A stretch of 64,000 bases of DNA from Acidobacteriota bacterium. GTDB taxonomy: Bacteria > Acidobacteriota > UBA6911 > RPQK01 > JAJDTT01. The notes beneath the pieces were generated by a model. That model was not told the DNA's origin and did not search any database. It saw only the letters and a program-made list of their open reading frames with translations. The translations under genes were made by a program, and so were the position numbers. Positions 51,323 through 53,214 of this stretch are shown one piece after another; position 1 is the first letter of the stretch, and every line of letters starts with the position of its first letter. The DNA lies in the NCBI GenBank assembly GCA_965263035.1, contig OZ253580.1:384001-448000 (forward strand), read 5' to 3'.

Positions 51323-52981
51323 ATGAAAGCCGCCATCTATCGGGGTATCGGGCGAATCGGTCTGCAGGAAGTGGAGCGGCTTCCCCCTCCGCCCGGATAC
51401 GTCACCATCGATACGCGGCAGACGGGCATCTGCGGCAGCGACCTCCACGTCTACCGGGGACACTGGCCTCAGCCCGCGACCTTGGCGCTGGGGCACGAGA
51501 CCTCCGGCGTCGTGGTGGAACTGGGCGAGGGGGTCTCGGGAGTCGAGCCCGGAGACCGGGTCGCCATCGAGTGCTTCTCCCACTGCGGGCGGTGCCGCTA
51601 CTGTCGGGGCGGCCACTACAATCACTGTCTGGAACGGCAATGGGTGTCGCAGGATACGCACGGAGGTTTTTCCGAGTTCACGACCGCTCATGCCTCGGCT
51701 CTCTTCCGGCTCCCTCCGGGCCTGAGCTTTGAAGAAGGGGCCCTGGTCGAGCCCCTGGCCGTGGGTTGCCGGGCGGTGGGTCAGGCAGGCGCGACCTGGC
51801 GGGATCGGGTGGCGATCCTGGGCGGCGGAACCATCGGCCAGTGCTGCCTGGCGGCGGCCAAGGCAGCCAACGTGCGGGAGACCTGGATCACCGTCAAGTA
51901 CCCGCAACAGGCCCGGCTGGCCAGAGATCTGGGCGCCGACCACGTGTTCGTGCTGGGTGGGAGCGACCTCGACGACTGGGTGAGCGATCTGGCCCGGGGT
52001 CCACGGCCGGACGCGGTGATCGAGACGGTGGGCGGAGGAGGCAATTTCGATCTCGCCCTTCAGATTGTCCGGCCCCGCGGCGTGGTGGTTCTGTTGGCCG
52101 GCTATCCGGAGCCGGTGGAGGTGGACCTGGGACGGGTTCTGGAATCCGAGGCGGTGGTAACCGGATCCCACTGCTACGCCTCGACCGGATTGGACACCGA
52201 CTTCGATCGGGTCGGGCGCAGGGGATTGCGCCCCTGCACCCTCCCACACCACCGGACGTACCGTTTTCAGTATCCGGCGGTTGGAGTCACCCGAGGCTCT
52301 TTCGAGCCTCGTACAGGGCCTTTCTTTCCGGTTTCCGCCGCCGCTGAGACTTGATCTCCGCCCTTCCGGCTTGCCGGGCTCCACCCGTGGGCCTTCCATG
52401 CCGGGTCCGAGGGGCCTCCCCCCGCCCCGTTTTCGGAGGTAGTTGCGATCCCGCTGACGAGTCCACCATAGGGCCAGTCCGACTCCTTCGGTCCTTCGCT
52501 CCACCGGCATTACCCGGCTTCTTCGCTACTACGACCTCTGCTGACTTCTCAAGGGCTCTCACCCTTGAGATCTCCCCGAGTAAGGTGCTGCATCTTTCCC
52601 CCCGGGCCGCCCGGCTCTACCTGATGCGTCTGGATGGGGTTCGGGTTTCGCTGTTGCTCGCCAGCTCACCGCCCGCACCCGGCCTCACTGCCGGTTCGTG
52701 TTCCTGCGGTCGTGGGTTTGCCTTCCGCTTCCTTCAGCTTCACCTCGCGGCTACGCCTTGCGGTTCGGCTAGGGTTGGTCCCATCACCTCCCTTGGGATC
52801 TTTCATCCCTTAGATACAGCCCATGTCGGGCGCACGAGCGGCCATCGACCTGATGGCCACCGGCCGGGTGGACGCGACCCGCCTCGTCACCCACCGGTTC
52901 CCTCTGGAAGCGGTCGAGGAAGCCTTCCGCGTCGCAGCCGACAAGTCCTCCGGGTCCATCAAGGTCCACCTCTGCCAGTGA
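51323..52981 (+). pseudogene. zinc-dependent alcohol dehydrogenase (MDR) interrupted by an antisense group II intron
   Basis: GICGSDLH, GHE, CGRCRYC...C, GGGTIG; joining 51323-52205 to 52836-52981 gives 342 aa ending DFGAAIDLMATGRVDATRLVTHRFPLEAVEEAF...IKVHLCQ. Confidence 0.92.
52206..52835 (-). mobile_element. ORF-less group IIC intron (630 nt)
   Basis: 5' end GTGCGCCCGACATGGGC; GAAGTCAGCAGAGGTCGTAGTAG DII/DIII region; domain V AACCGCCGGATACTGAAAACGGTACGTCCGGTGGT with CGC triad; domain VI ending ACCCGAT; no RT ORF. Confidence 0.93.
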
Positions 52982-53214
52982 TCCAATCGCGGCCAGCGGT
53001 CTTGGGGAAAGTCGAATGCCGCCTCCTCCCCGAAAGGATTTCGACCGTGACTTCGCCGGGTCGCCGTACGGCATGGAAACTCATTGCAGAGAACCCGCAG
53101 AATGCGGACGGTGTGGACTGGAACTCACCCCCTCTGTTCCGTCGAGAAACCTAAATAGGTATCCTTGACGACGTAGAAGGCAACAGTCCCATGCGGGTAC
53201 GACGTACTCCGGCC

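Follow-up and report, generated by a model that had tools for sequence, protein, structure and literature searches.

A recent, polymorphic insertion of a class IIC group II intron lacking an open reading frame in a dehydrogenase gene of an Acidobacteriota bacterium

The interrupted gene and the insertion junction

The window analysed here is a stretch of 64,000 nucleotides from the genome of an Acidobacteriota bacterium (contig OZ253580.1, positions 384,001 to 448,000; the genome is referred to as G000 and its contig as C1). Its plus strand carries a gene for a medium-chain Zn-dependent dehydrogenase that is interrupted by a complete group II intron of 630 nt, located on the minus strand between positions 52206 and 52835 and with no open reading frame (ORF) inside. 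The 5' part of the gene (51323..52205, plus strand), recognised in the ORF list and by its matches to ADH_N (GroES-like; 97.7 bits) and ADH_zinc_N (68.5 bits), consists of 294 codons plus the first base of a Gly codon, and the severed 3' end (52836..52981, plus strand), assigned by contiguity in the orthologues, contains the last two bases of that Gly codon, 47 codons and the stop. The insertion splits the Gly codon and severs the last 47 codons of the dehydrogenase, so that the ORF now present (51323-52354) comprises 294 native codons followed by 49 codons of antisense intron. The protein matches 21 listed NCBIfam families but reaches the curated equivalog cut-off of none; the best of these matches, threonine 3-dehydrogenase, has 142.9 bits against a cut-off of 458.

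An orthologue with an open frame of 343-368 aa and 90-98% identity is present in all eight other genomes of the genus, and the junction was compared in seven of these loci. None of our conclusions depends on the unpublished genome G016. In 7/7 the 60 nt to the left and the 60 nt to the right of the intron are contiguous, with a gap of 0 and the reading ...TDFGAAIDL..., which fixes the boundaries exactly at 52206 and 52835 and shows that the insertion produced no duplication of target bases. The same boundaries are set by empty-site contigs lacking exactly 630 nt, which are described below. A preliminary description of this DNA, made from the sequence alone, had proposed that removal of the intron restores the dehydrogenase frame without target duplication, and the orthologues bear this out. 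Because the intron is antisense to the gene, it cannot be spliced out of the dehydrogenase mRNA, and it is most likely that the gene has been inactivated, a loss of function that we infer from the truncation.

Anatomy of the intron

Group II introns have the consensus termini 5' GUGYG and 3' AY, and a CGC triad in domain V is typical of class C introns. The intron in the window starts with GTGCG (52835-52831, minus strand) and ends with ...GACCCGAT at 52206 (...GACCCGAU as listed for the complete element), so that its termini, GUGCG ... GAU, fit the group II pattern. When the whole window was scanned with Rfam at gathering thresholds, RF02001 (group-II-D1D4-3) matched positions 52754-52587 of the minus strand with 85.5 bits (E 1.1e-15; gathering score 32) over the full model, 1-170. 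This part of domain I contains the loop GCGAGCAA of exon-binding site 1 (EBS1), at intron positions 175-182, which includes GAGC, the complement of GCTC. RF01998 (group-II-D1D4-1) matched 52584-52491 of the same strand with 45.3 bits (gathering score 35) and covers the domain II hairpin, the junction J2/3 and domain III, the helices of which are found in the RNAalifold consensus as well. Domains V-VI were matched by RF00029 over the full model length at 52282-52206, with 40.4 bits against a gathering score of 40; this match was unreported in the whole-window scan and was recovered solely by a focused scan.

In the RF00029 alignment the consensus GAGCCG corresponds to CCGCCG in the intron, so that the domain V triad is CGC instead of AGC (intron positions 557-559). 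Domain V (52248..52281, minus strand) is 34 nt long, with the triad at 52279-52277 and a 2-nt bulge, and all of its 14 pairs are kept in 5/5 sequences when five ORF-less copies from four species are folded together with RNAalifold; the consensus has 188 pairs in total, 7 of them with compensatory changes. Domain VI and the 3' splice site occupy 52206..52246 (minus strand), with a predicted bulged A at window position 52212, 7 bases from the 3' end.

The interval 52206-52835 contains no ORF for a reverse transcriptase (RT). Comparison with longer copies of 1848 nt, taking the one at G000:C1:529488-531335, showed that their RT ORF is precisely the part that is missing, with a hairpin, CGAGGCTC-GAAA-GAGCCTCG, in its place. 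In the window this remnant of domain IV is the hairpin CGAGGCUC-GAAA-GAGCCUCG at 52292..52311 (minus strand). Since the window copy has no ORF, and a class C RT is found only in the 1848-nt sister copies, the element is best classed as a IIC intron that has lost its ORF, and not as a standard IIC retroelement. The preliminary description had called it a complete, 630-nt ORF-less class IIC intron, to be checked with covariance models. This identification is sustained by the matches to D1D4-3, D1D4-1 and RF00029, the CGC triad, the class C RT of the sisters and, as shown below, a target made of a hairpin and a short intron-binding site 1 (IBS1).

An empty allele of the insertion site

The stretch is contained in 20 public sequencing runs, of which four (X2, X6, X10 and X15) were examined as assembled contigs. 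Three of them show the empty allele: X2, X10 and X15 each have a contig that joins 52205 to 52836, with exactly 630 nt absent. In X2 and X15 a single contig spans both flanks with no mismatches, while in X10 the contig continues for just 30 nt past the joint and the right flank is on a second contig. The occupied allele was found in X6 (depth about 2), where contigs cross both junctions of intron and gene with no mismatch, one covering 51700-52247 and reaching 42 nt into the 3' end of the intron, the other covering 52813-53100 and including its 5' end. The intron-less allele that the preliminary description had suggested looking for thus exists. Only 1 nt separates the dehydrogenase copy from the one at C1:508168, and an empty allele persists as well, so that the insertion in the dehydrogenase gene is a recent polymorphism.

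Two other readings of X15, which is an RNA library, were considered and rejected. The depth over the intron cannot be taken as expression, because the depth of such contigs sums 24 copies and other organisms. The joined form cannot be taken as a product of splicing either, since the same form is found in X2, guessed to be DNA, and so is read as the empty DNA allele.

The intron family in the genome and its sister reverse transcriptase

A BLAST search with the 630-nt intron returned 34 matches in its own genome of 6.198 Mb, assembled as a single contig. They correspond to 24 copies, namely 19 intact ORF-less, 3 interrupted ORF-less and 2 RT-encoding copies of 1848 nt, with the remaining matches being one 51-nt remnant and four 41-nt matches from a second intron family. 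Further copies and RT-encoding introns, for which the preliminary description had proposed a genome-wide search, are therefore present. The 5' end is GTGCG in 23 of the 24 copies and GTACG in the other one, and the 3' end is ...CCGAT in all of them. The 19 intact ORF-less copies, 630-632 nt long and 97-100% identical to each other, align over 632 columns, of which 47 are variable, and they all share the same break point of the ORF deletion and an identical domain IV hairpin. They fall into two haplotypes plus mosaics, and five copies are identical.

Three copies (C1:4234234, 4838477 and 5702123) mix variant positions of both main ORF-less haplotypes, which suggests that sequence was exchanged among copies by recombination, gene conversion or template switching. 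The interrupted ORF-less copies are located at G000:C1:3067627-3070027 (plus strand), 3923178-3925592 (minus) and 5180457-5185638 (plus). Two of these share an IS3-like element of ~1.78 kb (IS, insertion sequence), inserted at intron positions 264/276 and 345/350, with orfA/orfB, including a stop-to-stop frame of 388 aa resembling an IS3-type transposase; the third has an insert of 4.7 kb with a recombinase-like ORF of 710 aa and IS21-like ORFs of the istA/istB type. Both inserts were named from their translations. The 51-nt remnant (G000:C1:56917-56967, minus strand) corresponds to intron positions 5-55 with 94% identity and is probably a decayed or truncated copy. The idea that the dehydrogenase copy is the sole genic copy was dropped, since ORFs across junctions with the intron deleted and a crude gene finder based on ORFs and on GC content at third codon positions were too noisy.

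The two RT-encoding copies are found at G000:C1:529488-531335 and 2572796-2574643. They have ~1.2 kb of extra sequence between intron positions 528 and 540 and encode an intact RT/maturase of 409 aa (ORF of 1230 nt), 100% identical in both; the ORF starts ~10 nt past the point of divergence from the ORF-less copies and ends in a TGA stop 8 nt upstream of domain V. The protein matches TIGR04416, group II RT/maturase, with 363 bits (cut-off 300), and has RVT_1 and GIIM domains, whereas no endonuclease domain was found in the protein-family scan. Its closest solved structures are the GsI-IIC RT (E 1.6e-133, residues 1-394) and then the maturase 7uim (E 2.6e-101). In the ribozyme core (positions 1-346) a copy of the dehydrogenase type is 99.4% identical to an RT-encoding copy, and both have the same target, which makes the 409-aa RT the obvious driver of the ORF-less copies.

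A second, unrelated group II family is present in the same genome, with copies at ~983769-984869 (minus strand), 5537513-5538613 (plus) and 5842098-5843198 (plus) of C1 and a fourth, split copy at 5053504-5056830 (plus). Its RT, of 426 aa, is 34% identical to the IIC-type RT, with the intact genes scoring 317-318 bits to TIGR04416. Its RNA matches Rfam group-II-D1D4-4 with 92.6 bits and RF00029 with 35.2 bits, and has only a 41-nt stretch, in domain III, in common with the ORF-less intron.

Target recognition

Cryo-EM work describes class IIC introns as recognising a 5' DNA stem-loop and a spacer, with a short EBS1 pairing, a single EBS3-IBS3 pair and no EBS2-IBS2 pairing (PMC10190682). In our genome GCTC lies immediately 5' of 24/24 copies, and the first downstream base is C in 23 of them and T in one. 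Folded with DNA parameters, the 28 nt upstream reach -6.3 kcal/mol or lower in 23/24, the exception being the most diverged copy, at -2.3 kcal/mol; most normal target hairpins are in the range of -7.7 to -9.9 kcal/mol, with two outliers at -6.3 and -2.3. As a background, 3000 random CTC/C sites of the genome (the slash marking the insertion point) gave a mean of -2.4 kcal/mol and a first percentile of -8.5. The commonest target hairpin is CGGCGRC-AAGAAA-GYCGCCG, followed by CTC, and a G/C-rich variant was found in three copies.

The target in the dehydrogenase gene (52836..52863, minus strand) conforms to this rule. It folds at -8.8 kcal/mol into the DNA hairpin GTGGCCATC-AGGTC-GATGGCCGC (52860-52838), with a stem of 9 bp that overlaps the IBS1 GCTC (52839-52836), and IBS3 is the C at 52205. 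The preliminary description had taken this insertion for an exception to the hairpin rule of IIC introns, a view that has to be abandoned, since the hairpin and GCTC/C on the antisense strand are as good as the normal targets. The GCTC/C derives from a Gly (GGA) and an Ala (GCG) codon read on the antisense strand, and those orthologues that use GGC for the Gly (four among those read) have no GCTC/C match. The dehydrogenase site is thus a chance mimic of the normal target, and the insertion an ectopic hit.

On the side of the intron, EBS1 is 5'-GAGC-3' at intron positions 177-180 (52656..52659, minus strand), pairing with the IBS1 5'-GCUC-3'. This identification is based on covariation of loop and target: GAGC goes with GCTC in 23/23 readable copies of G000 and in the copy of another genome of the genus, G004 (24/24 in total), and a GAGG loop goes with a CCTC target in 5/5 copies of G001, G003 and G008. 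EBS1-IBS1 is thereby identified as a 4-bp pairing that covaries across species, and the place of EBS1 agrees with the EBS1 loop at the D1d tip in the published E.r. IIC structure (PMC10190682). A candidate EBS1 in a UGAGAG loop (hairpin at positions 266-289) was rejected, since it is the GAGC at 177-180 that covaries and fits the E.r. position. EBS3 was not located in the ORF-less intron.

The normal target itself is a dispersed repeat. A 22-nt motif, GGCGRCAAGAAAGYCGCCGCTC, occurs in 92 exact copies in G000, for instance directly upstream of the introns at C1:508797 and C1:4234234, with 54 copies on the plus and 38 on the minus strand, and 59 of these 92 sites, occupied and empty together, are in the orientation that the intron disfavours (see below). 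The motif often has a second hairpin, GGGGACTCCGTCCCC, before it, and is sometimes found in tandem just downstream of an intron.

Replication-strand bias

The origin of replication was placed by dnaA at 2.872 Mb and by the minimum of the cumulative GC skew at 2.86 Mb, and strands were assigned from that origin with the terminus anywhere between 5.5 and 6.1 Mb. With this assignment the sense strand of the intron is on the lagging-strand template in 19-20 of the 24 copies (binomial p 0.0015 for 20/24). The exact 22-nt motif is occupied in 14/33 sites in the lagging-template orientation versus 3/59 in the other one (Fisher p 2e-5), and 75 exact-motif sites are empty. The dehydrogenase gene is head-on to replication, so that its antisense strand is the lagging-strand template, and the copy in it fits the bias. 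The intron is antisense in this gene because it is the antisense strand of a head-on gene, serving as lagging-strand template, that has the hairpin and GCTC/C.

Use of lagging strands at forks by IIC introns has been described (PMC10190682), as has a strong strand bias of class C introns (PMC8919778). The occupancy bias found here is the expectation for endonuclease-less introns that use replication forks.

Mobilisation in trans and alternative explanations

Taken together, it is very probable that the dehydrogenase gene was recently knocked out by a non-autonomous IIC intron using the RT of its sister introns, in an insertion that is still polymorphic. The intron keeps the full ribozyme, domains I-VI, with the entire RT/maturase ORF of domain IV deleted and a short GAAA-capped stem instead. 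Transcription from one of the ~22 ORF-less copies would be followed by splicing, and the RNA would be bound by the RT/maturase made from the two 1848-nt sister introns. The resulting ribonucleoprotein would reverse-splice into the single-stranded lagging-strand template at a replication fork, recognising a DNA hairpin, then 5'-GCTC-3' (IBS1, by its EBS1 GAGC) and C (IBS3). Since the RT has no endonuclease domain, cDNA synthesis would be primed by the nascent lagging strand. In the dehydrogenase gene, the reading frame now continues into the intron, at the cost of the last 48 codons. Mobilisation in trans, put forward already in the preliminary description, appears well supported by the 22 ORF-less versus 2 RT-encoding copies, the 99.4% identity of the core, the identical copies at different sites and the empty allele. 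The ORF-less copies may well be actively mobile, for which identical copies at separate sites, a fitting IBS at every site, the coexistence of occupied and empty alleles and the absence of the intron from the closest relative, G007, give strong indirect support.

Several observations weigh against this interpretation. The match to RF00029 is barely at the gathering score (40.4 versus 40) and was missed by the whole-window scan. The 5' part of domain IV is the usual primary binding site of the maturase, and in this part the ORF-less copies are just 76-77% identical to the resident RT-encoding copies, so that recognition of the ORF-less RNA by the 409-aa RT is assumed. The runs were examined as assembled contigs, in which ligated exons look the same as an empty DNA allele and neither transcription nor lariats can be recognised, so that mobility at the RNA level is put forward as probable. 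The loss of dehydrogenase activity is read from the truncation. X6, the only one of the four runs with the occupied allele, may be the source data of the genome and is then not independent, and 4-5 of the 24 copies are in the disfavoured orientation.

It could be that the ORF-less copies are moved by a different RT, for which that of the second group II family would be the candidate. Three further intact group II RT genes scoring 317-318 bits to TIGR04416 are available, and the divergence of domain IV between ORF-less and cognate copies would be compatible with such a partner. However, the RT of the second family shares only 34% identity with the cognate one, its intron matches another Rfam model (D1D4-4) and has only 41 nt in common with the ORF-less intron, whereas the ORF-less core is 99.4% identical to that of the cognate copy and both share the same target; a different driver is therefore improbable. 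We give equally little credence to a spread of the ORF-less copies as DNA, in which they would recombine or transpose along with the adjacent hairpin repeat, or to their being old relics with no movement of RNA. The normal target is indeed a dispersed repeat, with its 92 exact 22-nt copies, and bacterial ORF-less introns are usually regarded, according to a review (PMC4424553), as having lost retromobility. Nevertheless, the dehydrogenase insertion brought in no repeat DNA, its flanks being pure coding sequence joined exactly in the orthologues, the boundaries are always GUGCG...AU, a change in EBS1 is matched by one in the base located 4 nt upstream of where the intron inserts, occupancy depends on the orientation relative to replication, the copies show few or no differences, and there is an empty allele.

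With a repeat of 24 copies, and with only the empty site in 3/4 of the runs examined, one might suspect that a copy of the intron was misplaced during assembly. The X6 contigs cross both junctions without mismatch, although X6 may be the source data, and the insertion lies on the favoured strand, next to a strong hairpin and with IBS1 and IBS3 both matching fully, unlike what a random misjoin would produce, so that an artefact is very unlikely. Equally hard to credit is a co-option of the antisense intron for regulation, for example as an antisense RNA or a structured element controlling the dehydrogenase or its neighbours, an idea to which orientation alone lends support. A copy 1 nt from another one and absent elsewhere from identical flanks has had no time for domestication, the reading frame is destroyed, and no minus-strand gene is apparent directly upstream in the ORF list. 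As for the antisense consequence foreseen in the preliminary description, the knock-out part of it stands, since the ORF is truncated, while the antisense-element part is without support, no minus-strand gene or transcript context having been seen, and a plain knock-out is the simplest reading.

Distribution and origin of the ORF-less lineage

The intron was found in five of the eight other genomes of the genus, with one to a few copies each, and in none of six genomes of the sister genus. No copy was detected at E 1e-20 in G007, the closest relative by its dehydrogenase gene (98%). G001, a single contig 99% complete, has one ORF-less copy of 648 nt (locus L039, G001:C1:4991714-4992361, minus strand), preceded by the hairpin GGGGGACAGGGATGTCCCCC and CTC, and no cognate RT gene was found in it at E 1e-60; this copy is apparently a stranded non-autonomous intron. 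The ORF-less copy of G003, compared with the RT-encoding intron of the same genome, is 100% identical in the core and 98-99% in domain IV, and of the ORF it retains 12 nt at the start and about 27 nt at the end, features that mark it as a fresh deletion of that species' RT-encoding intron. In G008 the junction differs from both of these, and domain IV is likewise of a third type. Since the junctions and domain IV types of G003 and G008 differ, the ORF was lost in the genus at least twice, and probably three times.

In contrast to its distance from the resident RT-encoding copies (76-77%), domain IV of the ORF-less copies of G000 is 88-91% identical to that of the orphan copy of G001. The ORF-less lineage of G000 therefore looks like a mosaic, with a domain IV of its own but a core that has been homogenised with that of the RT-encoding intron in the same genome; a core 99.4% identical in spite of a diverged domain IV would imply that the lineage has repeatedly recombined, or switched templates, with any autonomous partner present. 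Because its domain IV is closer to that of the orphan, the ORF-less intron could tentatively be seen as a long-lived parasite lineage of class IIC, comparable to a short interspersed nuclear element (SINE) and with a history of its own, instead of a short-lived deletion product. The mosaic haplotype copies point in the same direction, but we consider this reading possible and somewhat less probable than its opposite. In this genome the non-autonomous form outnumbers its driver 11:1 and is now hitting genes.

Comparison with known systems

The mechanism proposed is that of class IIC introns, and it involves no new principle. Bacterial ORF-less introns are described as rare and generally non-mobile in a 2015 review (PMC4424553), and as increased in certain genomes in a 2022 survey (PMC8919778). 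In the literature, covered mainly through titles and abstracts, we found neither a proliferating ORF-less IIC family nor group II introns in these bacteria. The one worked-out exception, ORF-less introns of Thermosynechococcus that owe their mobility to the RT encoded by a relative, is a cyanobacterial family from another intron class (PMC2882425).

Our family and the autonomous IIC introns (GsI-IIC of Geobacillus stearothermophilus, the E.r. intron and B.h.I1) have several features in common, as far as the description of the E.r. intron goes (PMC10190682): an endonuclease-less RT, a stem-loop and spacer, an EBS1-IBS1 pairing of ~4 bp, one EBS3-IBS3 pair and use of the lagging strand, and the sister RT is closest to the GsI-IIC RT and 7uim. 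Unlike them, the copy in the window lacks an ORF altogether and lies inside a coding sequence, and the usual target here is a hairpin repeat, dispersed in the genome, that shows no obvious U/T tract and is not a recognised terminator or attC site. The group IIC-attC introns of integrons (PMC3001079) are also of class IIC and are described as homing to a family of imperfect DNA hairpins; unlike in their case, no integron context was seen here, and the hairpin has a short, 7-bp stem and is not an attC.

By analogy only, the family resembles the partnerships of SINEs with long interspersed nuclear elements, or of miniature inverted-repeat transposable elements with insertion sequences, in which the shorter, non-coding element has kept the cis features that mobility requires, relies on the enzyme of an autonomous partner and outnumbers it. 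There is no homology, and unlike in those elements the mobile RNA is here a ribozyme that does its own DNA integration. A comparison can also be drawn with the TeI3 introns of Thermosynechococcus elongatus, a lineage that we take to be CL/IIB-like. As here, the ORF-less copies of TeI3 have one deletion of the domain IV ORF in common and are the majority (17/28 there versus 22/24 here), their insertion sites have good EBS/IBS matches and some copies are broken by insertion sequences (Mohr et al. 2010, PMC2882425). Mobilisation by the RT of a related intron was experimental there and is inferred here, and the RTs of TeI3 are reported to be closest to that of EcI5, with base-pairing targets without a DNA hairpin (PMC2882425). 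Our introns differ in being of class IIC, with a target made of a hairpin and a 4-nt IBS1 and with a strong replication-strand bias, in the more extreme ratio of 11:1, and in a domain IV of the ORF-less form far more diverged from that of the driver (76-77%, with a core of 99.4%). In this genome class IIC thus appears to parallel, in a different intron class, the ORF-less introns of Thermosynechococcus.

Significance

For the annotation of this genome, the truncated dehydrogenase is to be regarded as a fresh mobile-element knock-out and not as an old pseudogene. One insertion has here been caught as a polymorphism inside a gene, and any head-on gene whose antisense strand has a hairpin followed by GCTC/C would be at risk of the same fate. 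The presence of empty and occupied targets in both orientations within one genome provides a built-in control for the dependence on the replication strand. The family therefore constitutes a compact natural system in which to study how an RNA is served by a maturase/RT encoded elsewhere, how targeting by structure comes to reach into coding sequence, and how non-autonomous retroelements originate and persist in bacteria.

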